Shown here: piece after piece, positions 11,867-54,837 of the stretch | How positions within the stretch are numbered: the first letter of the stretch is position 1 | Layout: each line of letters starts with the position of its first letter | NCBI GenBank assembly: GCA_016180645.1 | Contig: JACPAV010000005.1 | Location: 1-64,000 of the forward strand | Reading direction: 5' to 3' | Length of the DNA: 64,000 nucleotides | Source: Nitrospirota bacterium | Lineage (GTDB): Bacteria > JACPQY01 | Position numbers and translations under genes: made by a program | The notes under the pieces: model-generated | What the model saw: the letters and a program-made list of their open reading frames with translations, nothing else | Told to the model about the DNA's origin: nothing | Database searches by the model: none

Positions 11867-11880
11867 CCGGCGGTCATGTC

Positions 11881-12623
<743 letters not shown>

Positions 12624-12627
<4 letters not shown>

Positions 12628-34770: not shown

Positions 34771-34772
34771 GC

Positions 34773-35023
34773 GTAGGGGAGCATCTTCAGATGCTCCCAG
34801 TTCGGGAGGGTCTAAAGACCCTCCCCTACGATTTGGTACTTCAGATGCTCCCAAGACGGGCTTCATGCGTAGGGGAGCATCTTTAGATGCTCCCAAGACG
34901 GGCGGATCTGAAGATCCGCCCCTACGAATTGCTCCCTCTTTCGGGAGGGTCTAAAGACCCTCCCCTACGATTCGGCGCCAAGAATCGGCGCCAATCCGGG
35001 AGGGTTTGAACACCGTCCCCTAC
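34773..35023. repeat. REP array downstream of RAYT (6 full REPs plus 1 partial)
   Basis: A 34773-34798, B 34804-34829, partial A 34839-34852, A 34869-34894, C 34900-34925, B 34943-34968, D 34998-35023. Confidence 0.93.
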
Positions 35024-35490: not shown

Positions 35491-35517
35491 GGAGTCAGTC
35501 TACCGCAGATTGATCTC

Positions 35518-35902
35518 GTAGGGGAGCATCTTTAGATGCTCCCAAGACGGGCGGATCTAAAGATCCGCCCCTACGAATTGCTCCCTCTTTCGGGAGGGTC
35601 TAAAGATCCGCCCCTACGATTCGGCGCCGAGAATCGGCGCTGATCCGGGAGGATGTAAACACCCTCCCCTACAAATAAACCAACATCGCCAACGCTCCTC
35701 GTAGGGGAGCATCTTTAGATGCTCCCAAGAGGGGCGGATCTAAAGATCCGCCCCTACGATTTGCTACCCTCCCGTGTTCGGGCTCCTCGTAGGGGAGCAT
35801 CTTCAGATGCTCCCTCTTGCATGCTCCCTCTTTCGGGAGGGTCTAAAGACCCTCCCCTACGATTCGGCGCCAAGAGGGGCGGATTTGAAGATCCGCCCCT
35901 AC
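35518..35902. repeat. REP array upstream of RAYT (9 REPs)
   Basis: A 35518-35543, C 35549-35574, B/C chimera 35592-35617, D-like 35647-35672, A 35701-35726, C 35732-35757, A 35789-35814, B 35835-35860, C 35877-35902. Confidence 0.93.
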
Positions 35903-36024
35903 GGACTGATAGCAAGGCCAAATGGGAAACCGGTTACACGCTGTGAACCCAAGGTTACAGTCGCCGTCCTCCCCTCTTGCTTGACACTCCATGTACTATT
36001 AACCACTTGCCACTTACCGTCCTG

Positions 36025-36040
36025 TGGTACGGGGCTTGCT
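36025..36040 (+). promoter_or_regulatory. Sigma-54 (-24/-12) promoter of the pilin genes
   Basis: TGGTAC-GGGGC-TTGCT matches TGGCAC-N5-TTGCW with exact GG-N10-GC spacing, about 60 nt before the ATG. RBS AAGGAGGT at 36086-36093. Confidence 0.8.
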
Positions 36041-36099
36041 CTTTGCTCCACCAGATGAAACTTTCAGCACGAGCAACATACCACGAAGGAGGTGCGCCT

Positions 36100-36759
36100 A
36101 TGAGCCGCACAACCCCCAACAGAACTTTCATTTCATCCGATCCTGCGTCACGCGTCACGCGTCAAGCGTCACGGGCGCGAAGCCGCGCCGGTTTCACTCT
36201 GATCGAGCTGATCATGATCATTATCTTGATCGCGATTCTCGCTTCGATCGCGGTGCCCCGCTTCGTGAACCTCTCGCGGCAGGCCGACATCGCCGCCACG
36301 CGCGGCGCCTTGGGCGCCATCCGAGCCGCCATGGTGATGGACTATGCCAGCCGAACCTTGGTGTCCAGGGGCATCCCCAGATTCGCCAACGTGGTCTATC
36401 ACAGTTGGTTCATGGAGCTGCACGTACCGACGAATGAACTCACCAATACCAGCCTGCTTGCCAACGCCGGCTGGGGCGCTGAAGACGCCGCCATCACTGG
36501 TCAAACCGACCAGATCTCCATCGTCGAAAACATGGACTCCACCAACGCGCCCAGCGTCGCCAATCTCAATGCCCGAGGCACCGCCTCCGCCGCTTCCGTT
36601 CTCTGCTGCTCGGCGACCTGGACCTGCCCCGCCACCAACAACCCAGGCACCATCGCCTGGGTCTACGAAAGCTACGGGGAGTTCGAGGGCGTCGTGAAGG
36701 CGTGCGGCGACAATTCGGCCGCCACCGGATACACCGACGACCAAACGGATGCGTGGTAA
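36100..36759 (+). CDS. Type IV pilin (MSHA-like), copy 1
   Basis: Prepilin cleavage site G|FTLIEL with E5; hydrophobic helix ending AVPRFVNL; four C-terminal Cys; 31-aa leader; strong RBS. Confidence 0.92.
   Translation: MSRTTPNRTFISSDPASRVTRQASRARSRAGFTLIELIMIIILIAILASIAVPRFVNLSRQADIAATRGALGAIRAAMVMDYASRTLVSRGIPRFANVVYHSWFMELHVPTNELTNTSLLANAGWGAEDAAITGQTDQISIVENMDSTNAPSVANLNARGTASAASVLCCSATWTCPATNNPGTIAWVYESYGEFEGVVKACGDNSAATGYTDDQTDAW
36145..36172 (+). repeat. Heptamer repeat (GCGTCAC)x4 in the pilin 1 leader
   Basis: GCGTCAC GCGTCAC GCGTCAA GCGTCAC. Confidence 0.85.
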
Positions 36760-36785
36760 ACCAGGCGGAAACGGGAGGAATGCCC

Positions 36786-37445
36786 ATGAAACACTCAGCA
36801 CCCAGCACTCAGCACTCCGCGCTCATGAGCGGGTCACGAGTCACGAGTCACGAGTCACGGCGGCGAAGCCGCTCGGGTTTTACACTCGTTGAACTGGTGC
36901 TCGTGGTCATCCTGATCGCGATTCTCGCCTCGATTGCCGTTCCCCGATTCGTGAACCTGGCGCGGCAGGCCGACATCGCCGCCACCCGCGGCGCCCTCGG
37001 CGCCGTCCGAGGCGCGATCGTAATGGACTATGCCAGCCGCACGCTGGTCAGCCGGGGCGTCCCCAGATTCGCCAACGTGGTCTACCACAGTTGGTTCATG
37101 GAGTTGCACGTGCCCGTGAACGAGCTCACCAATACCAGCTTGCTTGCCAATGCCGGCTGGGGCGCCGAAGACGCGGCCATCACAGGCCAAGTCGATCAGA
37201 TCTCCATCGCCGAAAACATGGACTCCACCAACGCGCCCACCGTCGCCAATCTCAATGCCAGGGCCACCGCCTCCGCCGCCTCCGTCCTCTGCTGCTCGGT
37301 GGCTTGGACGTGCCCCGCCACCAACAACCCGGGCACCATTGCCTGGGTCTACGAAAGCTACGGCGACTTCGAGGGCATCGTGAAGGCATGTGGGGACAAC
37401 AACGGAAGCACCGGATTCACCGACGACCTGACGGACGCGTGGTAG
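36786..37445 (+). CDS. Type IV pilin (MSHA-like), copy 2
   Basis: G|FTLVEL; mature part differs from copy 1 at about 24 of 188 residues by manual alignment; GGAGG RBS 7 nt upstream. Confidence 0.92.
   Translation: MKHSAPSTQHSALMSGSRVTSHESRRRSRSGFTLVELVLVVILIAILASIAVPRFVNLARQADIAATRGALGAVRGAIVMDYASRTLVSRGVPRFANVVYHSWFMELHVPVNELTNTSLLANAGWGAEDAAITGQVDQISIAENMDSTNAPTVANLNARATASAASVLCCSVAWTCPATNNPGTIAWVYESYGDFEGIVKACGDNNGSTGFTDDLTDAW
36791..36860 (+). repeat. Two heptamer tracts in the pilin 2 leader: (GCACTCA)x4-5 and (GTCACGA)x4
   Basis: ACACTCA GCACCCA GCACTCA GCACTCC GCGCTCA, then GTCACGA GTCACGA GTCACGA GTCACGG. Confidence 0.85.
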
Positions 37446-37496
37446 GCACGAGGACGTGAGGCGCGAGACGCAAGACGAAAGGCGCAGGGAGAAGGG

Positions 37497-37715
37497 ATGA
37501 ACATCAACACGGGGAGTGTGGCTGCGATGAGCATGGAGTTTGAAGCCGTCACACTCCCCCTGTACCCCAGGCTCGCAATTGCACCCTCCCGGCCCAAGCC
37601 TTTCTCCACGAAGGATCTCATGGCCCTCAAGCGCGAAACCCCGCCCGCGCCCGAAGGAATCCTCGACAAGGTTTTCTCTTCCCTCGACCGCCTCTTCGCT
37701 CCCAGCCCGCTGTAG
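37497..37715 (+). CDS. Small hypothetical protein (72 aa)
   Basis: Purine-rich RBS-like GGGAGAAGGG; fills the gap after pilin 2; followed by a degenerate class A REP hairpin (37731-37750). Confidence 0.4.
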   Translation: MNINTGSVAAMSMEFEAVTLPLYPRLAIAPSRPKPFSTKDLMALKRETPPAPEGILDKVFSSLDRLFAPSPL

Positions 37716-37831
37716 AGCGCACATCCCTGAGGAGCATCCTCACATGCTCCCATCAGGAACGCGGAGGTCCGATCCGCGACGAAATGTTTATGTTGTGACT
37801 CCCCGTGCGTCAGGAGGTAGAATCAGCTTTC

Positions 37832-38800
37832 ATGACAGCCTTGAGCGGCAAGACGATCTTCCTGACCGGAGGGGCCGGGTTCATCGGGGCCGAACTGGCC
37901 GGCCGTCTGCTCGACCATAACCGCCTCATCGTCTACGACACGCTCGGACGCAACTCAATCCGGACCAAAACCTTTTTCCCCCATGCGAATCTGAAACTCA
38001 TCGAGGGTACCGTCCTGGATGCCGCCTCTCTGCACCGTAGCATGGAGGGAGCCGATATTGTCGTTCACCTCGCGGCCGTCGCCGGCATCGACACAGTCCT
38101 CAAGAGCCCCACGCAGACCATGCGCGTCAACCTCCTGGGGACGTCCTTCGTTTTGGATGCGGCCCGCGAACTCGGCGTGCGCGATCGCGTGGTGATCTTC
38201 TCCACCAGCGAAGTGTTCGGTACCTACGCTTACCGCGTAAGCGAGTCCGATACCACCACTTCGGGCGCGGTCGGCGAAGCGCGATGGATCTACGCGGTGA
38301 GCAAGCTGGCCGGGGAACACATGGCCTTTGCCGCATTCAAAGAATTCGCTCTTCCCGTCGTCATCGTGCGTCCCTTCAACGTCTACGGTCCCGGCCAAAT
38401 CGGCGAAGGCGCCGTCCACGTCTTCGTAAAACGCGCCATCGCGGGCGAGGACCTTGAAATCCACGGGGACGGCGACCAGATCCGATCCTGGGTCTACATC
38501 GACGACATGGTGGACGCGCTTCTTCTGCTCTTGCAGCACCCCTCGGCCGTGGGAGAATCTTTCAACATCGGCAATCCGAGGGGAACGGTGACGATCAATA
38601 CGCTCGCGGAGATGGTCGTATCGCTGGCGGAATCCCGCTCACGGATCGTCCACGCGCCCCGCCGCCATGCGGACGTCGAACTCCGGATCCCCAGCATCGA
38701 GAAGGCCAGGCAGATGCTCGGCTTCCAGCCGAAAGTCGACTTGAAGGACGGCCTGTTGAAAACCATCCGATGGTATCGCGAACAGCGGGATGGAAATTGA
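37832..38800 (+). CDS. NAD-dependent nucleotide-sugar epimerase/dehydratase (extended SDR)
   Basis: TGGAGFIG, VHLAA, STSEVFG, YAVSK, RPFNVYGPG, GDGDQIRSW. Confidence 0.92.
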   Translation: MTALSGKTIFLTGGAGFIGAELAGRLLDHNRLIVYDTLGRNSIRTKTFFPHANLKLIEGTVLDAASLHRSMEGADIVVHLAAVAGIDTVLKSPTQTMRVNLLGTSFVLDAARELGVRDRVVIFSTSEVFGTYAYRVSESDTTTSGAVGEARWIYAVSKLAGEHMAFAAFKEFALPVVIVRPFNVYGPGQIGEGAVHVFVKRAIAGEDLEIHGDGDQIRSWVYIDDMVDALLLLLQHPSAVGESFNIGNPRGTVTINTLAEMVVSLAESRSRIVHAPRRHADVELRIPSIEKARQMLGFQPKVDLKDGLLKTIRWYREQRDGN

Positions 38801-39809
38801 ACGAATGCAGGCCGCCATCCGCCGGCTCCAGCTCGATCTCTCCGGGCTGACCGTGCTCACCGAAGCCGCCTCCGGCCCGTACCGGCCTACACCCGTTCTC
38901 GCCGCCCTGGCCGGCGCCCGGAAGACCTACGCCGTCACCCGCGATTCAGGATTTGGCAAGGGCACAGAAATCGTCGAGTCCACTTTGGCTCTGGCGCGCG
39001 CCTGCTCCGTGGCCGGCGCCGTCGAGTTCCTCTTCGGCGACCTCGAAGCCGGCCTGCGCGAGGCCGACATCGTGACCAACCTTGGGTTCGTCCGTCCCAT
39101 CGACCGCGCGATGGTCGCCCGAATGAAACCGACCGGCGTCGTCCCCTACATGGCCGAAGCCTGGGAATTCCGTCCAGGCGACGTCGATCTCGATGCGTGC
39201 CGGGAGCGCGGAATTCCCGTGATGGGGACAAACGAGAGCCATCCGGGGGTCAATACCCTGCGGGCCTGCGGTCCACTCTGCGAATCCATGATGACTCGGG
39301 CCGGTGTCGCCGCCAAAGATGCCCGCGTGGTCGTCATCAGCAACGATCCCTTCGGCCCCGTTCTCGTCGATCATCTCACCTCCGCCGGCTCGATCGTCAC
39401 CCTCCTCCCCCGCCCCTCCCCACACGCGATTCAGAAGGCCGACGCCCTCGTCATGGCCTGCTATCGCTCCGACCGCTTCATCCTGGGATCGCGCGGCGAC
39501 ATGACACCGGAGCAACTGAAATCCCTCGCTCCGGCGATCCGCGTAATCCAATTCACCGGCGGGGCGGACGCCGAGGCCCTGAACCGCATGGACATCGCGT
39601 GCTTTCCCCCCGAGCAGGTGCCATTCCGAAGGATGGGCCGGACGCTGGCCGAGCTCGATCCCGGATTGGTCATCGACCTCCATGCCGCGGGGCTCAAGGT
39701 GGGGGAAGCCATGGCCCAGGCACGACGCCTGGGATTGTCCGGTCAGGATTTCGTACGTTACGTGACCGAGCATTCCCCCGCGCAACCCATGGACGGAGGC
39801 ACGCCTTGA
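38790..39809 (+). CDS. Hypothetical enzyme, loosely similar to the 2-hydroxyacid-dehydrogenase Rossmann fold
   Basis: Overlaps both neighbours; ADIVTNLGFVRPID, MKPTGVV, DVDLDACRERGIPVMGTN. Confidence 0.6.
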   Translation: MEIERMQAAIRRLQLDLSGLTVLTEAASGPYRPTPVLAALAGARKTYAVTRDSGFGKGTEIVESTLALARACSVAGAVEFLFGDLEAGLREADIVTNLGFVRPIDRAMVARMKPTGVVPYMAEAWEFRPGDVDLDACRERGIPVMGTNESHPGVNTLRACGPLCESMMTRAGVAAKDARVVVISNDPFGPVLVDHLTSAGSIVTLLPRPSPHAIQKADALVMACYRSDRFILGSRGDMTPEQLKSLAPAIRVIQFTGGADAEALNRMDIACFPPEQVPFRRMGRTLAELDPGLVIDLHAAGLKVGEAMAQARRLGLSGQDFVRYVTEHSPAQPMDGGTP

Positions 39810-40783
39810 GCGCCGTGATGGAACGTCCCCGGATCATGGCTGAGGAAGCCGGGCCGGGGACCGAGGCCGAATGGGACCGGCTCATCGACGAATGCGCCAA
39901 CGGCGTTCTCTACCAGAAGTCGGCCTTCCTCGCGCACTACGCCCACAAGGCCGAGAGGGTGGTGCGCCTGCTTTTCAGGAGTGGCGGGCGCTCCTTGGGA
40001 TTGCTGGCCGGGGGAATCGTCCCATCCGCCGGGCGCCGCGAACTGGCTGCGCCGTTCTCGGCCTCCTTCGGCGGCATCAGCCACACACCCGGACTCAGTC
40101 TAGGCGAGGCCGTCGCCTTGGTGGATGAACTGATCCGAGCCGCCGGCCGATATGGCGTTCAGTCCATCCGGCTGGCGCAGCCGCCGTCGATCTATTCCAC
40201 TGAGACCGACGACCGGCTGGACTTCGCCCTCCTGCACGCGGGATTCACGCCGGCAACGGCCGATCTTACCCTCTACCTCTCGGGCGGCAATCGCACCACG
40301 CGGTCCTCCGTCGTCCGAAATGTGAAGCGGGCTGAAAACAACGGCCTTGAGTTCCGTGAAACGGACGACGCCGCCGCCGTGTGGGACTTGCTTCACCGAT
40401 GGAAAGAATCCCGGAAACTTCCCTTGAGCGTGTCACGGGGCGACCTCGCCGCTCTGAAGGCTGCGTTCCCCGATCACATTCGTGCCTTTCTCACCCTTTC
40501 CGGAAACCGGCCCATCGGGGCCATGGTGCTCTACCAACTGAACCGCAGAACGGCGCTGGCCTTCGCGTGGGACGAGGACGAGGACTACCGGTCATCAAGA
40601 CCGAACGATTTCATGCTCACGCGAGTGATCAATGTCGCTCTCACCGGGGGAACGGCCTGTCTCGACCTCGGCACGGTGACCCTCCAGGGAGAACCCGTCT
40701 GGGGCGTCACTCGATTCAAAGAAAACTTTGGCCCGCGCGGCGCGCTCCGCAAGACCTACGTGCTGGTCCTTCCCAAGGCATGA
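39806..40783 (+). CDS. GNAT family (FemAB-like) acyltransferase
   Basis: WDRLIDECANGVLYQ, PFSASFGG, RNVKRAE, LDLG, GVTRFKENFG; TTG start overlaps the upstream stop. Confidence 0.8.
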   Translation: MSAVMERPRIMAEEAGPGTEAEWDRLIDECANGVLYQKSAFLAHYAHKAERVVRLLFRSGGRSLGLLAGGIVPSAGRRELAAPFSASFGGISHTPGLSLGEAVALVDELIRAAGRYGVQSIRLAQPPSIYSTETDDRLDFALLHAGFTPATADLTLYLSGGNRTTRSSVVRNVKRAENNGLEFRETDDAAAVWDLLHRWKESRKLPLSVSRGDLAALKAAFPDHIRAFLTLSGNRPIGAMVLYQLNRRTALAFAWDEDEDYRSSRPNDFMLTRVINVALTGGTACLDLGTVTLQGEPVWGVTRFKENFGPRGALRKTYVLVLPKA

Positions 40784-42480
40784 AGACCTTCCTCGGTATC
40801 AACATGTCGGGGCGCGATTCATCCGCCGCCCTCGTTTCAGAAGGCAAGGTCCATTTCGCCGTGAGGGAGGAACGCCTGAACCGTGAGAAGAAGACGCGGA
40901 AGTTTCCCCTCCTGGCCATCCGCGAGTGCCTTCGCGCCGGCGGCATCGGCTTGGCCGATGTCGACCGCGTCGCCGTTTCGTGGAATCCCGCCATCAACCT
41001 CGAGCGGTTCAACAGCGCGCAATCCGGGACCGCACGATACAAGCCGGAGCACCTTTATGCCGTCCCCAACCACCTCTTTACATTCCTCGATCCCGACGAA
41101 GGACTTCGCACCGACGAGATCTTCCACTTCGCGAGCGGGAGGCAGCTTGCCGTTCAGTATGTGAACCACCACCTCGCCCATGCCGCCGACGTCTTCCTCC
41201 TTTCTCCCTATGATGAGTCGGCCATCCTCATCATGGATGCCTACGGGGAAAAGCATTCGGTCACCTTTGCCCTCGGGCGCGGTTCGAGCTTCCAGGTGCT
41301 CCAGACGGTGCTCTTTCCGCACAGCCTGGGTTCGTTCTACGGCGCCATGACCCAGTATCTAGGCTTCACGCCGGATTTGGACGAATGGAAGGTCATGGGC
41401 GCCGGCGCCTACGGCGACCCGCAACGATTCATCGAGTTCTTCCGGGGGCTCTTCCGCCGCCTGGATAACGGCGCCTTCGAATTGGATCTTTCCTACTTCG
41501 ATTTTCCCCTCTTCACGCGGCCGACGCTGTACTCGGACAAACTCGTGGCCGCCCTCGGCGCGGTACGACATCGCGAGCATGACCTCGAACAACGACACTT
41601 CGACGTCGCCGCGGCCGTGCAGCAGGTCACCGAAGAAATCGCCTTCCACATGCTTGCCCACCTGCATCGGCTGACCGGCCTGAAGGCCGTATGCATCAGC
41701 GGGGGGGTGGCGATGAACTGCCTGCTCAACGGGAAGGTCACCTCGCGGACGCCATTCGAAAAGGTGTGGATCGGCTCCTCTCCGGACGACGGCGGCACAA
41801 GCGTCGGTGCGGCTCTCTACAGCGCTTCCCTCTCTTCGACATTCCCAAGGCATCCGGCCGAACACAACTATTGGGGCACCGAATACGACGCCTCGGAAAT
41901 CCGCTCGGAACTGGCGAAATACGGCCTCCGGTATTCCGAAGTGAAAGACCCCCATCTTGAGGCCGCCCGGCGTGTGGCGCGTGGAGAGATTGTGGCCTGG
42001 TTTCAAGGCCGGATGGAGTTTGGGGAGAGAGCCCTGGGCAATCGCAGCATTCTTGCGGACCCTCGCGACCCCGCCATGAAAGACAAGATCAACCGGGCGA
42101 TCAAGTATCGCGAAGCCTTCCGTCCTTTTGCCCCTTCCGTTCCGGAGGAGCAAGCCCATGAATTCTTCGAGCACGCCGACTACGTTCCTTTCATGGAGAA
42201 GGCTCTCGTCGTGCGGCCGTCCAAGCGCTCCGTCCTGCCGGCCGTCACCCATCAGGATGGAACAGCACGACTCCAAACCGTGCGGAAATCCGCGAATCCC
42301 TCGTTCTGGAGCCTGATCGACGCGTTCGGTAAGATGACCGGCGTACCTGTCCTCCTGAATACCAGCTTCAATCTTCAAGGCGAACCCATCGTCGGTACGC
42401 CGAAAGACGCCATCCGGACCTTCTATTCGTCCGGCCTGGACGCGCTGTTCCTGGGCAACACCCTCCTCGTGAAGTCATAG
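40780..42480 (+). CDS. Carbamoyltransferase (NodU/CmcH family)
   Basis: EERLNREK, HHLAHA, SLGSFY, EWKVMG, GGVAMNC, WFQGRMEFGERALGNRSILADPR, RPFAPSV, LLNTSFN. Confidence 0.95.
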   Translation: MKTFLGINMSGRDSSAALVSEGKVHFAVREERLNREKKTRKFPLLAIRECLRAGGIGLADVDRVAVSWNPAINLERFNSAQSGTARYKPEHLYAVPNHLFTFLDPDEGLRTDEIFHFASGRQLAVQYVNHHLAHAADVFLLSPYDESAILIMDAYGEKHSVTFALGRGSSFQVLQTVLFPHSLGSFYGAMTQYLGFTPDLDEWKVMGAGAYGDPQRFIEFFRGLFRRLDNGAFELDLSYFDFPLFTRPTLYSDKLVAALGAVRHREHDLEQRHFDVAAAVQQVTEEIAFHMLAHLHRLTGLKAVCISGGVAMNCLLNGKVTSRTPFEKVWIGSSPDDGGTSVGAALYSASLSSTFPRHPAEHNYWGTEYDASEIRSELAKYGLRYSEVKDPHLEAARRVARGEIVAWFQGRMEFGERALGNRSILADPRDPAMKDKINRAIKYREAFRPFAPSVPEEQAHEFFEHADYVPFMEKALVVRPSKRSVLPAVTHQDGTARLQTVRKSANPSFWSLIDAFGKMTGVPVLLNTSFNLQGEPIVGTPKDAIRTFYSSGLDALFLGNTLLVKS

Positions 42481-42497
42481 GATACCACGCGCATCCA

Positions 42498-43376
42498 TTG
42501 AATCGATCCGCCTCTTCAGAAAGCCAGCGAGACATCTACGACTCACGCAATCTCGCCACGCCTCGGGGCGCGTGGGAAGAAATATTCGCCTGCCAACTGA
42601 TCTATCGACGAGACCTCCTTCTCGAAACACTGAAAACTCTGAGCATTACTCCTCCCTCCGGGGAGTCCGTCTGGGTATACGTGGGCGGCGGTGAAGGAAC
42701 TCAATGCATGGTCCTGAGCGCCATCGGGGGCACACACCTCAGCCTGGACATCTCGCCCACCCAGCTCCTGCTGGGCCGCTGGCTCATGACCCGTGTAGCC
42801 GATCGCTACATCCCCGGCCTGCGCTCCGATCGGGTGTTTTTCGCGTGCGCGGACGCCCTCAAGCCGCTCCCCGTCCACCGTCTCCAGGCGGATGTTGCCT
42901 ACGGTCTGGGCGTGATGAATCACCTTCCCCCCCAGGCTTGGGCCGATCACCTGCGCGAGTTGAGGGGAATCCTGAAGCCCGGCGGTACGATCTTTCACGT
43001 CCTTCCCAATCTCGACTGCGAAGTCTATTCCCGGCCGATTTTCACGCGCCAGTTTGCCGACTCGGGCAGCATGCAGTATTGGACGCAATTCGTGAGCGAA
43101 GACAACGCGGTGGCCGCCTTTCGGGAGGCCGGACTTTCCGACATCAGAACCGCGAAGCTTTGGAGATACGATCACGATGCCGGTTTGCGATACCTGCGAA
43201 TCCCGGAAGTCGTCTGCCGGCGCATCGTTCAACGATTCGGATCCAGGATCTCCTTTCGAATCGTCCCCGCCCTCCAGCGATGGGCCAGACGGAGCGCCGA
43301 GGCAGGCCGCTGGACAGGGAGGCCGTGGACTCTGCGGCAGCCTCGTCATCTTGCCGTCGCGGGAACATGCCGATGA
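42498..43376 (+). CDS. Class I SAM-dependent methyltransferase
   Basis: YVGGGEG, LDIS, ADA, VMNHLP, LKPGG. Confidence 0.75.
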   Translation: MNRSASSESQRDIYDSRNLATPRGAWEEIFACQLIYRRDLLLETLKTLSITPPSGESVWVYVGGGEGTQCMVLSAIGGTHLSLDISPTQLLLGRWLMTRVADRYIPGLRSDRVFFACADALKPLPVHRLQADVAYGLGVMNHLPPQAWADHLRELRGILKPGGTIFHVLPNLDCEVYSRPIFTRQFADSGSMQYWTQFVSEDNAVAAFREAGLSDIRTAKLWRYDHDAGLRYLRIPEVVCRRIVQRFGSRISFRIVPALQRWARRSAEAGRWTGRPWTLRQPRHLAVAGTCR

Positions 43377-46350: not shown

Positions 46351-46352
46351 TC

Positions 46353-47891: not shown

Positions 47892-49432
47892 ATTTGGCCG
47901 TCGCCCTGGTCATTCTTGCGGCGTTCGTTCTCCGAATCGTTCCGAGGATGGTCCGCCCCTACGCCGTACCATCGGACACGTACTACCATCTGTCCGCTGC
48001 GGAGGGGATCCGCCGGAATCGCTTCAGAATTCCGCGGTTCCTGCCCGGATACGGACTGCGCACGCCCTTCGACTATCCCCCGCTTTTCCACTATCTCCTG
48101 GCCTGCCTGCCCAAATCGCTCCGGGAAAAAAGCGAACGGTACTGGGGTCCGTGCATCGACACCTTTCGCATACCGCTCCTCTATTTCGGAACGGAATGGG
48201 CAGCGCCCGGCTGGCTTTCTCCGCGTGATCGCTTCTGGCTGGCCATTCTCATCGCGACGAGCCCCGCCCTCCTTCAAGTAGGGACCGGACCCCGCGCCTA
48301 CCAAGCCACGCCGCGCACGCTCGCCGAATTGCTGTTCGACGCCACACTCCTGACCGCACTGTGGTCGCTGCACCAGACCTCACCCTTCGCCGCGATCCTC
48401 CCCGCGATCTCGGGTGGCCTTCTTCTCCTCACCTCGAAGTTTTCCCTCCAGATTCTTCTCCCGGTATCCGTGGCCGCAGGCCTGGCAGGTCATTCGCCCG
48501 GACTGGCGGCGCTCCCTCTCACGGCGGCGATGGCCGCCACATTACTCTCACGAGGCTACTACCTCAGAGTCCTCCGGGGTCAGGTGGGACACCTCTATTT
48601 CTTCAAGACGGTCACCTCCAGAAAGTATCCGGGTGTCTTCGAAAAGAATCGTCTACAGGACCTGCTGCATCTCCCGACTCTTTTCAGAAACAGCCCCGGT
48701 AAGGCCGCCCGGGTGGTTTTTCAAACCAATTCCTACTTGATCGCAGCAATCCGGCACCCCGCCCTCTGGATGCTCCCGATCCTTCTCCTCGGGGGAACAT
48801 CCCTCCAATCGGCCCCTTCCGCCCAACTGTTCGTCGCCGTCACCCTCGGCGCTCTGGCGGCTTTTCTCCTGACGTCGCTCCGTCCGTTCCTATTCCTCGG
48901 CGAGCCGGAACGGTATCTCGATCACGCGGCGCTGGGGCCGCTGGCCCTGGTTGTCTCTCTAACCCCTTCAACCCGCATCGTAGGTCTCATCCTGGGGTAC
49001 CAGCTCCTAATCTACGCGGCCTACTTCTTCCTCTTCTTGAAGTTGTTTCCCGACCAGCCCGAACAGCGTCAGGCCAGAGCGGAAGCGGCCGCCTTTCTCC
49101 GAAACCACCGGGAGCCCCTTCGAATCCTTTCCATCGGACCCACCTACGAACTCGCCTATACATGCGGTCATGAGATCCTTTTCCCAAGCGGCAACTACTC
49201 CGCCGCCTATATGACGAAAACGGAATTCGACTCTCTCTACGTTCTCTACGGTTACCCCCCGCAGGACTGGCGGTCACTCATGAGACGGTACAAGCTGAAT
49301 GCCGTCTATGCCTCCAAGTCCACCCTGCAACATGCCGGGAGCATCGGTATCCGGTACGATTTTGTCGGCGTTCGACCCGCGTATGAGAACGACCAGGCGC
49401 TCATCTTTCTGAATCCCGGGAACGGCGCCTGA
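47888..49432 (+). CDS. Polytopic membrane protein, GT-C-fold glycosyltransferase/oligosaccharyltransferase-like
   Basis: TM1 followed by SDTYYH and DYPPLFHYLLA; many TMs; GEPERY; C-terminal soluble domain. GTG start overlaps the upstream stop. Confidence 0.65.
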   Translation: MNLAVALVILAAFVLRIVPRMVRPYAVPSDTYYHLSAAEGIRRNRFRIPRFLPGYGLRTPFDYPPLFHYLLACLPKSLREKSERYWGPCIDTFRIPLLYFGTEWAAPGWLSPRDRFWLAILIATSPALLQVGTGPRAYQATPRTLAELLFDATLLTALWSLHQTSPFAAILPAISGGLLLLTSKFSLQILLPVSVAAGLAGHSPGLAALPLTAAMAATLLSRGYYLRVLRGQVGHLYFFKTVTSRKYPGVFEKNRLQDLLHLPTLFRNSPGKAARVVFQTNSYLIAAIRHPALWMLPILLLGGTSLQSAPSAQLFVAVTLGALAAFLLTSLRPFLFLGEPERYLDHAALGPLALVVSLTPSTRIVGLILGYQLLIYAAYFFLFLKLFPDQPEQRQARAEAAAFLRNHREPLRILSIGPTYELAYTCGHEILFPSGNYSAAYMTKTEFDSLYVLYGYPPQDWRSLMRRYKLNAVYASKSTLQHAGSIGIRYDFVGVRPAYENDQALIFLNPGNGA

Positions 49433-51105
49433 TGAACCGCAATTCACTGGCCGCCCTCGGCACGGCTTTCCTGTTTTTGCTCCCCCGGTGGTTGGGTCTG
49501 GGCCAATCCTACTACCAGGACGACGCAAAGATCCCCTTGATTGTTGATCCCGCCTTCGGGCGACAGGGGGCGAATCCCCATCCGCCGCTCGGCGAGGCGC
49601 TTCAGGCCGGATTCGGAGCCATCGCCGGCTACGATCATCTCCGTTGGCTCCCGTTCCTGTTCAGCGCGGGCAACCTTCTTCTGGTGTACCGACTCGCGCG
49701 AACGTGGGCCGGTCCAGCCGCGGCAGGATGGGCGGCGTTTGTTCTCGCGGCGACCTTCTATTCGATCCTCGGGTCCACCATGCTCGACGTGGACGGCGCC
49801 ATCATGCCGTTTTTCGGCCTTCTTGCCATGCTGTCTTACTCCAAGGGCCGCGATACATCGGCTCGCACACTCTGGCGATCCCAGATTCCCACGGCGCTGG
49901 CCTGCGCCGCCGGACTGCTCCTTAAGTTTATCTTTCTCCTCGTTCCCGCGGCCCTGGTCCTTGACGCCTTCTTGAGCCGGCCTAAGCTGAACCGGGATCG
50001 GCTCCAATCGTTTCTTCTGCCGGTTGTCGTGGGCACCGTGGCGTTCGGCGCCGGGCTGGCCCTCCTGAGGCTGCTCTATGGAGGCTCGGACGTCACACAC
50101 GCCATCGAGTTCGCAAGTGGGTTCGAATTCTTCAGGTTCGACCGGATCTCGGTCGCTCACAAGGCCTTCGAGTTCATCAAGTGTCTCCTCTATGCCTCAC
50201 CTTGGGTTTTGATCTGTCTCCCGGCGCTTCGACCACTCTGGAGAACCGCGCGTCCGGCGTTCCTCTTCATTTTGCTCTACGTCCTGGTCCATGCGGTTGT
50301 GCTGAGGCTTGAGGGAAGAGCGATCGATCGATACTTCGGAATGACCGTGCCTTTCGCCGCTGTCCTGACGGGCATCGCCGCATCGAACCTCCTGCCCGCA
50401 CCGCGTTCATGGACGCGAAAGACGGCCGCCGGGCTCTTAGTCCCCGCGGCACTGGCCATTCTGCCGCTGATCTTCCTGATCCCTGCCGGTCGGATCATCC
50501 CACTCTACCCGAAGACCGGATTCGTATCGGCCCTTGCCCGAGGCGACTGGACGACACTGATCCCATTCCGCGGTGGAAACGGCCCCGCGGGATTCTACAT
50601 TCCGATGGGATTCGCCGTCATTTCCTGGCTCCTGGCGTCACTGTCGCTTGCGGTTTTGGTCCTCAGCCGTGGTAGCCGAATCAGAATCACATGCCTTCTG
50701 ATCCTCGTTTTCCTCGGGTTCTCATACAATGCCGTATTTGCCGAAGAGTTTGCGCTGGGTCTCCGCTATGGCAATCCTAGCCGGCTCGCGAATCGCGTTC
50801 TGGGAGAGGTCACATCGATGCGGAATGTTCCCCGCGTTATCACCTACGATGACATTGGCCTGTACGAACTGTCGGTGTCCCGCCAATATGCCGGGCGCTT
50901 CTATGGCGTTCCTGAATACTGGGAATCCAATCGAAAAAAGCTGGCGGCGGCACGGGACGCTCGCATCCTCGTCGTCCACTTTCCCATCCTCGATCCCCAT
51001 GGCCCATACTGGCGATACTTGTCCGGATGCCTGCGACTTCGAGAATGGCGCCACCGGCGGATGGAAGCGTTTCTCGCCGACTGCTCCGGCGCCGCCCTAC
51101 CGTAG
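49432..51105 (+). CDS. GT-C (ArnT/PMT-like) membrane glycosyltransferase
   Basis: QSYYQDD, HPPLG, LRWLPFLFS, DVDG, GLLLKF, DRYF; many TMs. Confidence 0.78.
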   Translation: MNRNSLAALGTAFLFLLPRWLGLGQSYYQDDAKIPLIVDPAFGRQGANPHPPLGEALQAGFGAIAGYDHLRWLPFLFSAGNLLLVYRLARTWAGPAAAGWAAFVLAATFYSILGSTMLDVDGAIMPFFGLLAMLSYSKGRDTSARTLWRSQIPTALACAAGLLLKFIFLLVPAALVLDAFLSRPKLNRDRLQSFLLPVVVGTVAFGAGLALLRLLYGGSDVTHAIEFASGFEFFRFDRISVAHKAFEFIKCLLYASPWVLICLPALRPLWRTARPAFLFILLYVLVHAVVLRLEGRAIDRYFGMTVPFAAVLTGIAASNLLPAPRSWTRKTAAGLLVPAALAILPLIFLIPAGRIIPLYPKTGFVSALARGDWTTLIPFRGGNGPAGFYIPMGFAVISWLLASLSLAVLVLSRGSRIRITCLLILVFLGFSYNAVFAEEFALGLRYGNPSRLANRVLGEVTSMRNVPRVITYDDIGLYELSVSRQYAGRFYGVPEYWESNRKKLAAARDARILVVHFPILDPHGPYWRYLSGCLRLREWRHRRMEAFLADCSGAALP

Positions 51106-52215
51106 ACCCTCGACCAGCGAAAGAAGACTCCCTGCCACGGCGCGGACATGGTGGGGTCGGGCGGCCGCCCTCGCGAGGCGCGCAAATCTTCGGACCTCAT
51201 GGTCGTCCGTCAGCAGCCTGACGACCCCATCCGCAAAACGCCCCACGTCACCCGGGGGCACGCAGAACGGAGCCAACGGACCTTCAAACAGATCCCCCGT
51301 GCCCCCCGCGCTCGTAGCGACAACGGGCAGGCCCATGGCAAAAGCTTCCAGGACGTTCCGGGGAACCCCCGCCCTGAGCGAGGGGACGACGAGCACATCG
51401 GACGCCGCAAACCAATTCTTCATCTCCGAATGCGCAACCCATCCCCGGAAGTCCATGACATTCCTCACGCCCAGCCTCGTCGCCTCAGATTCCACGGGCT
51501 TCCGCGCGGGACCATCTCCGGCCACGATCCAGCGGACCCCGGCAACGCGCCGCCCCACCCGCCGAACCAATTCGGGAAGGAGCATGCACCCCCGATCGAC
51601 AGACAATCGATGAGCAAACAGGACCCATCTCCTCCTCACCGGCAGCCGCAGTTTGCTCTGGAGCTCCGACTTCGGGCCTTTCACGGCACCCCAGGGATCC
51701 ACCCATGAGGGCAACACGGTCACCCGCTCCTCCTTCAGTCCGAACCGGGCTACGTACTCCCTGCGCAACGTTGCCGTGCCCGTGAGAACCAGGTCCGCGG
51801 ATCGGAGCGCGCCGCGGAGGATCCACCCGCTCCCCCACGGGTCCTCTCTGGCGTAGAGCCAGGGTTCCCCACAATGCCAATACAGTGCTTTCCCCCCCCA
51901 GCGCCGCGTCACCCATCGCGCCGCAAACAGTCCCAAGTAAGAGTAATGCACGAAGAAGGTTTCACAGCCCTCCTTCCGGGCCCGCCGGAGCTGGGCCACC
52001 GCGCGCATCCAACCCCCCGGCGCGCTCAAGGTCCTCCCCCATCGGCCGGATGCGGCTTCCGGGGCCGCAGACAGGCTGATCAGAACAGCGCCTCCCCTCT
52101 GCCGCCGATTCAATTCGCGCACAAGAGCACCCACGTGATCGAAGTGATCGTGGCCCCGAGGATTCTTGTGAGGCAGCACGAAACATATCCTGGGGAGGTC
52201 GGTTTTGGATTTCAC
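51097..52215 (-). CDS. Glycosyltransferase family 4
   Basis: VAGDGP, FRGWV, ASDVLVVPS, VLEAFAMGLPVVATSAGG. Confidence 0.9.
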   Translation of the reverse strand: MKSKTDLPRICFVLPHKNPRGHDHFDHVGALVRELNRRQRGGAVLISLSAAPEAASGRWGRTLSAPGGWMRAVAQLRRARKEGCETFFVHYSYLGLFAARWVTRRWGGKALYWHCGEPWLYAREDPWGSGWILRGALRSADLVLTGTATLRREYVARFGLKEERVTVLPSWVDPWGAVKGPKSELQSKLRLPVRRRWVLFAHRLSVDRGCMLLPELVRRVGRRVAGVRWIVAGDGPARKPVESEATRLGVRNVMDFRGWVAHSEMKNWFAASDVLVVPSLRAGVPRNVLEAFAMGLPVVATSAGGTGDLFEGPLAPFCVPPGDVGRFADGVVRLLTDDHEVRRFARLARAAARPHHVRAVAGSLLSLVEGLR

Positions 52216-52242
52216 GGCCCGGCAGTGCTACAGTGTATCAGA

Positions 52243-52884
52243 GTGACAGCGGGCCACCAGCTCCATATCCTCAACCCGCGCCAGCGCGAGTTGCTCGAAC
52301 ACTTCCAACCCTACCTGCGGGGTCGTATCCTCGATATCGGTTGTCGTGACTTGAATCTTGCACGACACCTTCCATCCGGCTGCGTCTACGTGGGCATGGA
52401 TACCGGTTCGGGAGGGACCGTCCGGGCCACGGGGGAAGGCCCTTTCCTTCCCTTCAAGGATCGCGCCGTGGACGTCACACTGGCCATCGCCGTTCTTGAA
52501 CACGTGGATGACCCCTATCGACTCTTCGGCGAACTCGCTCGCATCACACGGCGCACCATCCTCATCAATCTACCCAATCTCTACGAACTGTCGTATCGTA
52601 TTCGATACCTCCTCGGACTATCGCCCAACGGCAAATACGGCCTACCACCCGACCCCCCCGCTGACCGCCACAAGTGGTTGCTCAGTCACACCGAGGCCGC
52701 TCGGTTTGTGCAGGCCGCCGCCGACCGACACGCCCTGACGATCACCCGGTCGTTCCCCTCGTTCCGCCGATATTTTCGTCTCTTTGAACGCCTCTCCCTC
52801 CGGTGGCCGAACGCCACGGTCTGGGAATCCTGGTGGGTTCTGGAGCGGTCCTCAGCCAAGCCTAAACCGATCCCGATCCGCTAG
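52243..52884 (+). CDS. Class I SAM-dependent methyltransferase
   Basis: ILDIGC, YVGMD, LPFKD, VLEHVDDP; start placed at GTG 52243. Confidence 0.8.
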   Translation: MTAGHQLHILNPRQRELLEHFQPYLRGRILDIGCRDLNLARHLPSGCVYVGMDTGSGGTVRATGEGPFLPFKDRAVDVTLAIAVLEHVDDPYRLFGELARITRRTILINLPNLYELSYRIRYLLGLSPNGKYGLPPDPPADRHKWLLSHTEAARFVQAAADRHALTITRSFPSFRRYFRLFERLSLRWPNATVWESWWVLERSSAKPKPIPIR

Positions 52885-53019
52885 GAGCGTGTTGGGATAG
52901 CTCAAATACCCTGAGTCAATCGAAGGGCTCACCACGAACGGTACTTTGAATCGAATCAATATATGCCGCTCGCCCTGAGCGCCGTCGAAGGGTGGAAACG
53001 GAACTATCCCAACACACTC
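52885..53019. mobile_element. 135-bp MITE with 16-bp terminal inverted repeats and CTAG flanks
   Basis: GAGCGTGTTGGGATAG ... CTATCCCAACACACTC (15/16 match); CTAG on both sides; internal REP-like hairpins. Confidence 0.8.
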
Positions 53020-53196
53020 CTAGGTGATATCCCGCACATAGCGGGCCACAATCGCCGGGATCCATCCCGATGATCCTCGGCACGACTACCCAACATGTCA
53101 CCCAAGATTCTCGGTCTCCCGTTGTCAATCGAAGCGCACGGTCTGAGATGGAGTCCTATTGTTATGTCAACATGTTAACGCGCCCGCCTAGCACCA

Positions 53197-53212
53197 TGGC
53201 ACAGGGTTTGCG
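53197..53212 (+). promoter_or_regulatory. Sigma-54 (-24/-12) promoter
   Basis: TGGCAC-AGGGT-TTGCG, 36 nt before the ATG of the PseB-like gene. Confidence 0.75.
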
Positions 53213-53248
53213 CAAAACGCGTCCAGAGGTCAATGCTTCTCTGACTGT

Positions 53249-54244
53249 ATGACGGGAAACACGACTCTGAATTGGAATGGCTCCACGATCCTCATCACAG
53301 GAGGGTCCGGATCTCTCGGCAGCTTCCTGGTCGACTATCTGCTCGAGCATCGCCGGCCCAAGCAAATTCGCATTCTCTCCAACGATCCCGCGGAACAGTC
53401 GGCCCTCAGACGGAGGCTGGAAGACGATCGAGTGGCCTTCTACATTGCCGACATCCGCGAGCCCGGTTCTTTGGCGGACGCTTTGTCCGGCGTCGATTTA
53501 CTTGTCCACGCCGCGGCCCTGAAAGACGTATCGGCTTGTGAAGCCAGGCCCTTCGACGCTTCTGAAATCAACATAGCGGGATCCCAAAACGTTGCCCGCG
53601 CGTGCATCGAGGCGGACGTGAAGAGCGCCCTCCTGATTTCGACCGACAAGGCGGTCAACCCCACCACCGTCTACGGAGCAACCAAGCTCTGCGCCGAGCG
53701 GGTCTTCGTCGCCGCCAATTTCGACCGCGACCACTATCGCGCCACGCACCTTTCCGTCGTCCGTTTCGGGAACCTGGCCGGGACGAAGGGGAGCGCCATC
53801 CCCGTCCTCCTCGCCCAGCGGCGAAAAGGCACCCTCCGGCTCACCGATCCGAAAATGACGCGCTTCTGGATCTCTCTTGAACTCGCCTCTGCCTTCATCG
53901 TTCAATGTCTTGAATCCATGGAGGGCGGCGAAGTGTTCGTCCCACGCACTCAGAGTGTGCGCCTCACGGATCTGGCGGATACCATCGCTCCGGACGGCGA
54001 TGTGGCCTGGGTCGGCGCCCGGCCCGGCGAGAAGATTCATGAAGTCCTCCTCGCCGCGCAGGAGAGCACGCACGCGCTGGACCTCGGAAGCTTTTACGTC
54101 ATTCAGCCGCACAACCCTGCCTGGACGTGCGCGAACTGGAAGAAGGGACGCCCGCTCCCCAGCGGATTTTCATTCCGCTCGGACCTGAATGATCGCTGGG
54201 TGGCGGCGGAACAGATTCAGGCGGTGGTCAGCACCGTCCGCTGA
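53249..54244 (+). CDS. PseB/CapD-like UDP-N-acetylglucosamine 4,6-dehydratase (divergent)
   Basis: GGSGSLG, HAAALK, STDKAVNP, YGATK, VRFGN, TDPKMTRFWI, RPGEKIHE. Confidence 0.85.
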   Translation: MTGNTTLNWNGSTILITGGSGSLGSFLVDYLLEHRRPKQIRILSNDPAEQSALRRRLEDDRVAFYIADIREPGSLADALSGVDLLVHAAALKDVSACEARPFDASEINIAGSQNVARACIEADVKSALLISTDKAVNPTTVYGATKLCAERVFVAANFDRDHYRATHLSVVRFGNLAGTKGSAIPVLLAQRRKGTLRLTDPKMTRFWISLELASAFIVQCLESMEGGEVFVPRTQSVRLTDLADTIAPDGDVAWVGARPGEKIHEVLLAAQESTHALDLGSFYVIQPHNPAWTCANWKKGRPLPSGFSFRSDLNDRWVAAEQIQAVVSTVR

Positions 54245-54806
54245 CGGGGTTCCGAACGATCCGGATGGCCCCGCTCCTCCGAGCGTAGCGCGCACCGCAC
54301 GCACACGGCTTCCCCGGTGTCATGCGCCGATTGCACCGGCACACGTAGCCCTTCCGGGTCGCTGGATTTCCAGCCACCAGCGCGTACGGCTCCACGTCCC
54401 GATGGACCACGGCGCCGGCCGCGACGAACGACCATTCACCGATCTTCACACCGCACACAATCGTGGCGTTGGCGCCGATGGTGGCCCCACGCGAAACGTG
54501 AGTCGGCAGAAACTCTTCCCGCGGAGTCTTGAATCCAGGCATGGAGCGGGGTCGTCGATCGTTCGTGAACACGGCAAAAGGCCCAAGGAACGCGCCATCC
54601 TCCACGGTCACGCCCTCCCACAGGGCGACGCCGTTCTTGACCGTGACATGATCCCCCACCACCACGCCCGACTCCACATAGCAGTGCTCTCCGATATTGC
54701 AGTCTTTCCCGATCCGGGCGCCCTTCATGACGTGGGCGAAGGCCCAGACGCGGCTTCCCGCTCCAATAGAACGGCTCTCCACGAAGGCTTTGGGATGAAT
54801 GAAAAC
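54228..54806 (-). CDS. Hexapeptide-repeat sugar N-acetyltransferase (WbpD/FdtC-like); start unclear
   Basis: VFIHPKAFVE, IGKDCNIG, VFTND, GATIGANATI, AGNPA, C-terminal CRC...CACG. Confidence 0.88.
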   Translation of the reverse strand, partial: VFIHPKAFVESRSIGAGSRVWAFAHVMKGARIGKDCNIGEHCYVESGVVVGDHVTVKNGVALWEGVTVEDGAFLGPFAVFTNDRRPRSMPGFKTPREEFLPTHVSRGATIGANATIVCGVKIGEWSFVAAGAVVHRDVEPYALVAGNPATRKGYVCRCNRRMTPGKPCACGARYARRSGAIRIVRNPVSGRC

Positions 54807-54809
54807 TCG

Positions 54810-54837
54810 GGCTGACCGCTGACCGCTGATCGCTGAT
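54810..54837 (-). repeat. Heptamer repeat (GGTCAGC/GATCAGC)x4
   Basis: Plus strand reads GGCTGAC CGCTGAC CGCTGAT CGCTGAT, between the cyclophilin stop and the acetyltransferase. Confidence 0.8.

Follow-up and report, generated by a model that had tools for sequence, protein, structure and literature searches.

A tailoring-rich glycan cassette with a Wzx flippase and two GT-C transferases beside a pilin pair, more probably neighbours than one system

Extracytoplasmic glycosylation systems of the three-component type that handle pentofuranose have reportedly been described by Kelly et al. in 2024. In the available part of PMC11194591, three-component systems (GtrABC and others) and the ArnT pathway start from a lipid-linked donor made in the cytoplasm, employ a dedicated flippase, which can belong to the MOP superfamily, and transfer the sugar to an envelope acceptor through a membrane transferase of the GT-C class. 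TfpW, as far as the accessible descriptions of it go, is another GT-C-class membrane enzyme, which glycosylates the type IV pilin of Pseudomonas aeruginosa group IV, is encoded directly after pilA and carries a C-terminal TPR domain and a DDX motif; TfpO and PglL, in the portion of the TfpW preprint that covers them, use Wzx-flipped units linked to undecaprenyl diphosphate (Und-PP) and can decorate pilins, with pglL unlinked to pilE. Here we analyse a locus that shares traits with each of these, found in the first 64,000 nucleotides of contig JACPAV010000005.1 (assembly GCA_016180645.1, a Nitrospirota bacterium; hereafter "the window"), where a pair of pilin genes is followed on the same strand by a run of ten glycan genes that includes a Wzx-type flippase and two GT-C membrane transferases. 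An earlier note, drawn from the sequence alone, had proposed that this run builds a short, decorated glycan for the pilins or for another surface acceptor.

We favour, with a probability of roughly 55%, the reading in which the pilin genes and the glycan operon stand side by side without forming one system, with the operon serving as the decoration module in an envelope-glycan pathway that depends on Wzx. The most likely acceptor would be another envelope glycan (O-antigen or exopolysaccharide (EPS)-like) or a group of surface proteins rather than the adjoining pilins in particular; these may possibly be one acceptor among others. The cassette is conserved across phyla at loci free of pilin genes. 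The window corresponds to positions 1–64000 of contig C25 in a 4.7-Mb genome of 65 contigs with ∼62% G+C, whose phylum has just two species genomes among the 199,900 genomes of the set searched; the second of these (G001, hereafter "the sister genome") is 84% complete. DNA of the window was also found in four groundwater-metagenome runs, all from one study.

The glycan operon and its largely pilin-free relatives

Gene identities are based on a listing of open reading frames (ORFs) combined with Pfam and NCBIfam profile scans. Judged from the sequence, the ten + strand genes between 37832 and 51105 form a translationally coupled operon, accompanied by four flanking sugar genes, and from 38800 on their junctions are overlaps of 1–4 nt or gaps of 2–17 nt. 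The first encodes an extended short-chain dehydrogenase/reductase (SDR) of the sugar-nucleotide epimerase/dehydratase type (37832–38800, start could be 37805; Epimerase at 2.2e-54, and under every NCBIfam equivalog cut-off), and it is followed by genes for a D-2-hydroxyacid-dehydrogenase-like (2HADH-like) protein (38805–39809, start could be 38790), a FemAB-like GNAT acyl/aminoacyl transferase (39806–40783; Acetyltransf_6 at 3e-8 and a weak match to TIGR03019, pepcterm_femAB), an O-carbamoyltransferase of the NodU/CmcH family (40780–42480) and a SAM-dependent methyltransferase (methyltransferase 1, 42498–43376; Methyltransf_11 at 3.7e-7). The Wzx-type (PST/MOP) flippase (43373–44842) scores 42.6 bits against Polysacc_synt_3 (cut-off 23) and 41 bits against Polysacc_synt (cut-off 28.2), with 10 hydrophobic segments by a crude scan. 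Two class-B-like radical SAM paralogs come next (radical SAM 1, 44839–46350; radical SAM 2, 46353–47891; 34% identical, E 2e-84), and the run closes with the membrane transferases GT-C 1 (47888–49432, 514 residues) and GT-C 2 (49432–51105).

A scan of 185,579 species genomes with GT-C 1 returned 113 loci with a relative, 80 of which were examined together with as much as 10 kb of DNA on either side. Of these 80 loci, 67 contain one or more glycan genes of the tested set; among genes like those of the window, an SDR gene is present in 55, a Wzx gene in 35, a 2HADH-like gene in 20 and a radical SAM gene in 10. A gene with a pilin motif is absent from 78, and the other two are in a Kiritimatiellia metagenome-assembled genome (MAG), where a set of type II secretion pseudopilins lies on the opposite strand, and in a Planctomycetaceae MAG with a single such gene. 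The 20 loci in which the 2HADH-like and GT-C 1 families occur together include many from Poribacteria, often beside AsnB, DegT and a FemAB-like GNAT. A metagenome scan with the 2HADH-like protein gave only three loci, none of them with a pilin motif, and a TARA contig shows the order SDR, 2HADH-like, one other gene, GT-C 1. In the sister genome, at its 84% completeness, the GT-C 1 query found no match, and the nearest pilin (28% identity) does not adjoin the cassette.

The best match comes from a Desulfobacteraceae MAG (OZ245369.1), whose core follows the order of the window with SDR (58% identity), 2HADH-like protein (35%), GNAT (32%), carbamoyltransferase (36%), radical SAM (36%) and Wzx (31%). 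After Wzx come an AMP-binding protein, AsnB, a GNAT, a PMT_2 protein, a phosphoesterase, a radical SAM protein (40%) and GT-C 1 (37%), with a GT2 gene after the latter; as the PMT_2 protein cannot be aligned with GT-C 2 by BLASTP, it is a positional and family counterpart only. This cassette is embedded in a cluster of ∼45 kb, all on one strand, that also encodes another radical SAM protein, a first Wzx, a Wzy_C protein, DegT aminotransferases, deacetylases, acetyltransferases and many GT4 enzymes, and one of its radical SAM paralogs matches PF02310. The presence of two flippases is consistent with a main repeat unit accompanied by a decoration that is flipped on its own. The nearest match to N_methyl in this MAG lies ∼550 kb from the GT-C 1 locus, and a whole-genome search of two Anaerolineae genomes that carry Wzx, GT-C 1, SDR and GT4 genes gave zero N_methyl matches.

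Nine further GT-C 1 loci (116 proteins) were annotated in detail, and neither N_methyl nor Wzy_C is matched in them at E ≤ 1e-6. Wzx directly abuts the GT-C 1 homolog in five of the nine, one of which is a stand-alone pair, and one of the nine instead exports by an ABC transporter (Wzm/Wzt), a route with no expected need for a Wzy-type role. A Terriglobia MAG (L023:9971–15343) encodes a GT-C 1 homolog of 758 residues with a C-terminal TPR extension, followed by a 965-residue fusion of B12-binding, radical SAM, TPR and methyltransferase domains, and GT-C 1 thereby recurs with class B radical SAM chemistry.

These comparisons speak against the tie between glycan genes and pilins that the earlier note had put forward. 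It had named homologous loci consistently unlinked to pilins and containing Wzy or Wzz as the outcome that would contradict it, and this is largely what we found, with 78 of the 80 loci lacking a pilin motif, N_methyl ∼550 kb away in OZ245369.1, and Wzy_C in the cluster of that best syntenic relative. Of the two acceptors it offered, the other surface acceptor is the better supported, and the pilins are not supported. Its description of the locus itself has largely held up: the Pfam matches and the similarity of the radical SAM pair bear out the epimerase, the GNAT, the NodU-type carbamoyltransferase, the methyltransferase, Wzx and the paired radical SAM proteins, the genes do overlap or abut from 38800 to 51105, and the picture of a glycan-tailoring locus with Wzx and two membrane transferases of the GT-C fold agrees with the Pfam matches and the GT-C 1 model.

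Of the four flanking sugar genes, the GT4 glycosyltransferase (51097–52215; Glyco_trans_1_4 at 3e-26) was correctly anticipated in that note to follow the run; it lies on the minus strand, convergent with GT-C 2. It is followed by methyltransferase 2 (52225–52884, + strand, start uncertain; Methyltransf_11 and Methyltransf_23, both at ∼3e-7) and a UDP-N-acetylhexosamine 4,6-dehydratase of the PseB/FnlA-like type (53249–54244, + strand; Polysacc_synt_2 at 6e-74). The comparison of the latter with PseB, as named in that note, falls short, at 324.9 bits against an equivalog cut-off of 407.75; PseC-, PseH-, PseG- or PseI-like genes were not seen with it. A hexapeptide acetyltransferase is likewise present, on the minus strand (54228–54782; Hexapep at 4.6e-23), and the + frame at 54189–54815 for which this activity had been claimed has an Arg/His/Pro-rich translation without a family match. 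As the note had also observed for Wzz and Wza/Wzc, none of Wzz, Wza/Wzc, Wzy_C or an initiating phosphoglycosyltransferase is found among the window ORFs scanned. Genome-wide, matches to Bac_transf, Glycos_transf_4 (WecA/MraY-like) and Wzy_C (PF04932) fall on other contigs only, the four to Wzy_C on contigs C3, C17, C2 and C18.

Tailoring enzymes and the two membrane transferases

In the mechanism that we infer, down to the reactions of the individual tailoring enzymes, the carrier lipid, the acceptor and the choice between a monophosphate- and a diphosphate-linked donor, a sugar or short oligosaccharide would be tailored in the cytoplasm by the SDR, the 2HADH-like protein, the FemAB-like GNAT, the O-carbamoyltransferase and the methyltransferases, and further by the two AprD4/class-B-like radical SAM enzymes, the PseB-like dehydratase and the GT4 enzyme. 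Assembly of the glycan would take place on a polyprenyl carrier, with the priming transferase supplied by a gene at another place in the genome; Wzx would carry the lipid-linked product across the inner membrane, and the two transferases of class GT-C(A) would attach it to the acceptor at the periplasmic face.

The 2HADH-like protein (334 residues) has no Pfam or NCBIfam match, and its family comprises at least 1267 relatives; among the 120 listed there are zero Pfam domains and no name other than "hypothetical protein". Its AlphaFold2 model (predicted local distance difference test score, pLDDT, 96.6) finds DpaA, PHGDH, GHPR and FDH in Foldseek at E ∼5e-9 with a template modelling score of ∼0.5. 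As this model shows the two-domain fold of D-2-hydroxyacid dehydrogenases, the earlier description of the protein as unknown and oxidoreductase-like is fair at the level of the fold. The carbamoyltransferase contains both Carbam_trans_N (154.9 bits) and Carbam_trans_C (239.3 bits), which places it in the NodU/CmcH family, and at 152 bits it is far from the NodU equivalog (cut-off 1000); its nearest solved relatives are NovN (314 bits), GdmN and TobZ, over a range of 314–257 bits.

Both radical SAM proteins match the core domain (PF04055, 91.5 and 80.6 bits, the former at 8.9e-26), with the CxxxCxxC motif as GCPFGCTFC in radical SAM 1 and GCPFTCAFC in radical SAM 2. Radical SAM 1 gives partial matches to the PhpK, HpnJ, AprD4 and BchE families, all under the NCBIfam cut-offs, and has as its nearest solved relative the diol-dehydratase AprD4 (76.8 bits), ahead of cobalamin-dependent methylases. 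The B12-binding domain PF02310 has no match at E ≤ 0.01 in either protein, with partial matches to several NCBIfam models of B12-dependent radical SAM enzymes below the cut-off. Because AprD4 is the nearest solved relative and a B12-binding Pfam domain is missing, the pair may deoxygenate its substrate rather than methylate it. The genome as a whole encodes ∼15–18 class-B-like radical SAM paralogs alongside 17 PMT_2-like matches (13 above the cut-off), an unusual expansion, and one stretch of contig C15 (83701–113885) alone holds six or seven of these paralogs together with two PMT_2-like genes, without a pilin motif.

Both membrane transferases are on the ArnT/PMT/STT3 side of the GT-C class, that is GT-C(A), GT-C 1 by the fold of its model and GT-C 2 by its match to PMT_2 (GT39/GT83-like; 32.7 bits, cut-off 26.1), which speaks to the choice that the earlier note had raised between PglL, TfpW, ArnT or STT3 and the Wzy/WaaL type. 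In the available part of PMC10920833, GT-C(A) includes GT66, GT39, GT83 and GT53, and GT-C(B) includes WaaL, SEDS and Wzy polymerases. Neither transferase has a sequence match among PDB chains at E ≤ 1, and GT-C 1 is likewise unmatched in Pfam and NCBIfam; none of the 30 proteins of its family in a large protein collection carries a Pfam domain. An AlphaFold model of GT-C 1 built from 29 family members (pLDDT 91.4) aligns best, in VIA-align, with STT3A (Z 25.6, 444 residues aligned, spanning residues 1–514 including the small C-terminal domain), followed by AglB (23.5), Pmt4 (22.1), ArnT (20.6) and PglB (19.9), and then by DPY19, Emb/Aft and ALG enzymes, and Foldseek places STT3 at E 4e-9; identity is 7–16% over all fold-search rows. 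WaaL and SEDS appear neither among the 50 VIA entries listed nor among the Foldseek rows shown, an absence that does not exclude a family. In a protein-language-model atlas, GT-C 1 falls first among Pfam-less clusters and then among clusters partly labelled PMT_2 or STT3. The residues D30, D62 and D91, candidates for the conserved acidic residue that class A enzymes of the GT-C fold carry in the first periplasmic loop, are invariant or nearly so in the 29-sequence family alignment. STT3, PglB and AglB carry a WWDYG motif in their C-terminal domain; since this motif is absent from the GT-C 1 sequence, we do not file the protein under GT66.

GT-C 1 and GT-C 2 were considered as paralogs and rejected as such (BLASTP E 0.15). 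No ArnT NCBIfam model is matched by either, the locus lacks DegT, GT2 and deformylase genes, Wzy_C is unmatched among the locus ORFs, and Pfam scans find no TPR domain in either transferase. GT-C 2 has eight homologs besides itself in the large protein collection. One of these, of 899 residues (P0038), fuses a GT4 domain to a PMT_2 domain, a hint that the convergent GT4 enzyme may act together with GT-C 2.

The usual cargo of Wzx is an Und-PP-linked oligosaccharide, and the way in which Wzx abuts GT-C 1 in five of the nine annotated loci, three of which (L012, L016 and L041) have the two as their only polytopic membrane proteins within ∼8 kb, raises the alternative of a self-contained Wzx pathway, in which GT-C 1 would be a new polymerase, ligase or general oligosaccharyltransferase acting on lipid-diphosphate-linked oligosaccharides in place of Wzy, WaaL or PglL. 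This alternative, which overlaps the favoured reading in all but donor and role, draws support from the best structural match of GT-C 1 being to GT66 over its whole length and from the lack of Wzy_C matches at the nine loci; according to the accessible part of PMC10920833, GT66 was the sole CAZy family known for sugar-diphospholipid donors before the new families added there. We regard it as doubtful, as GT-C 1 lacks WWDYG, the Z-score of its best match exceeds those of PMT and ArnT by just 3–5, the Desulfobacteraceae cluster has a Wzy_C protein of its own, one locus relies on ABC export, and Wzy often escapes Pfam, with other Pfam-less membrane proteins of 10–14 segments in three of the nine loci.

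The pilin pair and its neighbourhood

The twin pilins reported previously are confirmed as two genes above the N_methyl (PF07963) cut-off of 21.2 bits whose products are 82% identical: pilin 1 (36100–36759, + strand; 22.6 bits), with AGGAGG 7 nt upstream of its ATG, and pilin 2 (36786–37445, + strand; 27.7 bits, and 24.7 bits against TIGR02532, cut-off 16.3). Both are 219 residues long, pilin 2 when counted from 36786, in agreement with a 219-residue database record (221 residues from 36780), and both consist of a 31-residue Ser/Thr/Arg-rich leader and a mature part of 188 residues with four cysteines, located in the C-terminal domain. The cleavage sites, read between RAG and FTLIEL in pilin 1 and between RSG and FTLVEL in pilin 2, are those of class III signal peptides. 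Type IVa pilins have short leaders of about 5–7 residues, and the 31-residue leaders of this pair are longer. An exhaustive phmmer search found only the respective paralog below 1e-30, the other matches being confined to the N-terminal region, which makes pilin-centred synteny impossible. Two leads were set aside: a 1114-residue repeat protein, whose match looks compositional, and the N-X-S/T sequons of the pilins (NTS is kept in both), for which chance expectation suffices.

On the favoured reading, the pilins are probably a recently duplicated pair, bracketed by repetitive extragenic palindromic (REP) elements and transcribed on their own. The window contains seven palindromes of the form GGAGCATC-N5-ATGCTCC, all within 32702–37750 and around the gene for a REP-associated tyrosine transposase (RAYT; 35020–35490, minus strand; NF047646 100.5 bits, cut-off 80), where 0.01 would be expected by chance. 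Three of them form an array upstream of the pilins (35523–35813), and one (37731–37750) lies between the pilins and the glycan run. The pilins had been described as followed by the run on the same strand, and the order is indeed as claimed; they do not abut it, as a gap of ∼390 bp (37446–37831) with a putative 72-codon ORF (37497–37715, + strand, read from the sequence) and the REP palindrome intervenes. The adjacency itself is real and not an assembly artefact, because independently assembled contigs from three runs of the one study bridge 35846–39500 with zero differences. A scan for promoters and terminators gave no more sites than in shuffled sequence.

The REP palindromes flank the pilin pair as well as a gene for a Kelch/PKD protein, and the array at 35.5–35.9 kb is fragmented and very deep in public contigs. 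The leader-coding part of both pilin genes contains heptanucleotide tandem repeats (36145–36173, GCGTCAC x4.1; 36792–36825, CACTCAG x4.9; 36833–36859, GTCACGA x3.9). Two of the three heptamer types were searched genome-wide, and each is unique here on this strand, the first of them having one reverse-strand match on contig C3. As gain or loss of a 7-nt unit shifts the frame, these repeats could be phase-variation switches; length variants were not found among the contigs of the four runs. Contig depth at 36671–37004 rises 20- to 80-fold in run X1 and less in the other runs, and one contig, present in three runs, departs from the window sequence at 36862, which suggests that other DNA in the sample also contains the heptamer-repeat stretch.

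The close same-strand placement of the pilins, together with the precedent of TfpW as a GT-C enzyme that glycosylates a pilin in the accessible descriptions, speaks for an alternative that we judge unlikely, namely a dedicated system in which GT-C 1 and/or GT-C 2 transfer a short, decorated glycan to Ser/Thr or Asn of both pilins in a TfpW-like manner. Several observations weigh against the favoured reading. A convincing terminator was not found over the ∼390 bp between the pilins and the SDR gene. The pilins are 10.4 kb upstream of GT-C 1, so that flanks of 10 kb would just miss such a placement elsewhere; five genomes were searched whole for this reason, and the long-range pilin search is limited to these five. 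Neither a GT2 nor a PPPRS-type polyprenyl-phosphate sugar synthase is found among the locus ORFs, and the absence of the GT2 synthase from the window leaves the donor for both GT-C transferases unexplained. Two of the four pilin clusters in the genome lie within 15 kb of both a GT-C and a class-B-like radical SAM gene, as does 2.25% of the genome (binomial P ∼0.003), a post hoc statistic that falls to none of four at 10 kb and to one of three when the window's own case is left out. Finally, both genomes of the phylum have a GT-C gene in one operon with minor-pilin genes, which makes GT-C-mediated pilin glycosylation plausible in this lineage.

This second pilin neighbourhood lies on contig C54 (52226–61294; L090:3226–12294), where an operon of pilin and minor-pilin genes with a 1153-residue PilY1-like protein is directly followed by a TMEM260-like (PF11028) GT-C gene and, downstream of it, by genes for PMT_2-like proteins, two B12-dependent radical SAM enzymes, a GT2 and a GT4. 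The seven-gene order of the pilus operon is conserved on contig C50 of the sister genome (L004:10578–19999), with minor pilins, the PilY1-like protein, a 249-residue protein, the TMEM260-like GT-C and a 251-residue protein in shared order, at 41–52% identity for the pilins and the PilY1-like protein and 34% for the GT-C. The radical SAM pair and the other glycan genes of C54 are not conserved there, and only the TMEM260-like GT-C is kept. From its operonic setting, this GT-C is a better candidate for pilin glycosylation than the cassette in the window, and a candidate TfpW-like pilin glycosyltransferase; a search of the literature for a link between "DUF2723" and "pili" found none.

Against a dedicated pilin system in the window stand, in addition to this lack of conservation of the C54 glycan genes, the 78 pilin-free GT-C 1 loci, the remoteness of N_methyl in OZ245369.1 and its absence in the two Anaerolineae genomes, the position of the GT-C genes 10.4–12 kb from the pilins and behind a REP element (in the descriptions available, tfpW and tfpO directly follow pilA), and a pilin C-terminal domain that offers no relatives for comparison beyond the paralog. 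The readings are not strictly exclusive, as a general glycan can end up on pilins: the accessible part of the TfpW preprint has TfpO using Wzx-flipped O-units and PglL unlinked to pilE. A bolder combination, that GT-C 1 founds a GT-C(A) family partnered with Wzx in many phyla and using diphosphate-linked donors, and that in this phylum it serves as an oligosaccharyltransferase which puts a carbamoylated, radical-SAM-tailored glycan onto the twin pilins and perhaps other surface proteins, builds on the same-strand adjacency, the second pilin–GT-C neighbourhood, the GT-C genes in minor-pilin operons and STT3 as best fold match, and strikes us as more doubtful still; if true, it would be a third bacterial route of pilin or protein glycosylation beside PglL/TfpO and TfpW/PglB. 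That the cluster makes an aminoglycoside- or aminocoumarin-like secondary metabolite rather than an envelope glycan is most improbable, even with NovN, GdmN, TobZ and AprD4 all acting on natural products, since Wzx, two GT-C transferases and a GT4 indicate lipid-linked glycans, homologous cassettes sit inside O-antigen/EPS-type clusters with Wzy_C, DegT, AsnB and many GT4 genes, and polyketide synthase, nonribosomal peptide synthetase or aminocyclitol genes were not found among the ORFs scanned.

Elsewhere in the window, 5430–14318 encodes a TetR regulator, a radical SAM protein, a protein without assigned function, an AAT-like protein of acyltransferase fold, a transglutaminase-like protein and an ABC transporter pair, and could be a small peptide-modification cluster.

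Comparison with described systems

Gene adjacency by itself is insufficient to call this locus a pilin-glycosylation system, and we see the cassette as a compact, cross-phylum module for periplasmic glycan decoration. It brings with it two families left unnamed by the curated libraries searched, GT-C 1 with its STT3-like model and the 2HADH-like proteins with more than 1000 relatives, and working out the chemistry of both would add a new GT-C branch. Such work could also account for sugars that are carbamoylated, or C-methylated or deoxygenated, in envelope glycans of groundwater and sediment bacteria that are uncultured. Systems of this kind are known; the particular variant was not found described in the literature (supplements aside), where a search combining carbamoyltransferase, radical SAM, O-antigen and flippase gave no fitting description. 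This accords with the view of the earlier note that the enzyme combination is unlike that of described pilin glycosylation pathways.

Compared with TfpW as described, the GT-C proteins of the window share the GT-C class and differ in their distance from the pilins and in lacking a TPR domain. The TfpO/PglL route resembles the locus in its use of Wzx; in contrast, the window has no Wzy_C domain, and its transferases are GT-C(A), a class apart from the GT-C(B) of WaaL, Wzy and SEDS in the accessible part of PMC10920833. STT3, AglB and PglB (GT66) are the best structural neighbours of GT-C 1 (Z 19.5–25.6), which at 7–16% identity has no sequence match to them, no WWDYG and a much smaller C-terminal domain.

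Among Wzx/Wzy-type O-antigen or EPS clusters, that of OZ245369.1 shares with the window the same ordered core cassette, Wzx, GT4 enzymes and sugar-nucleotide enzymes, and the window, without Wzy_C, DegT, AsnB or a priming transferase, resembles the decoration module alone. NovN, GdmN, TobZ and AprD4 act on antibiotics; their relatives in the window would work in the context of lipid-linked glycan assembly. By analogy, the closest described logic to that of the operon is found in the three-component extracytoplasmic systems and ArnT, with a lipid-linked donor, a flippase and GT-C transfer to an envelope acceptor; the window departs from them in that a polyprenyl-phosphate sugar synthase is not encoded with the flippase and the GT-C, in having a Wzx/PST flippase instead of GtrA or MATE, in having two GT-C transferases, and in a far richer tailoring equipment that comprises carbamoylation, two radical SAM enzymes, a FemAB-like GNAT and two methyltransferases.

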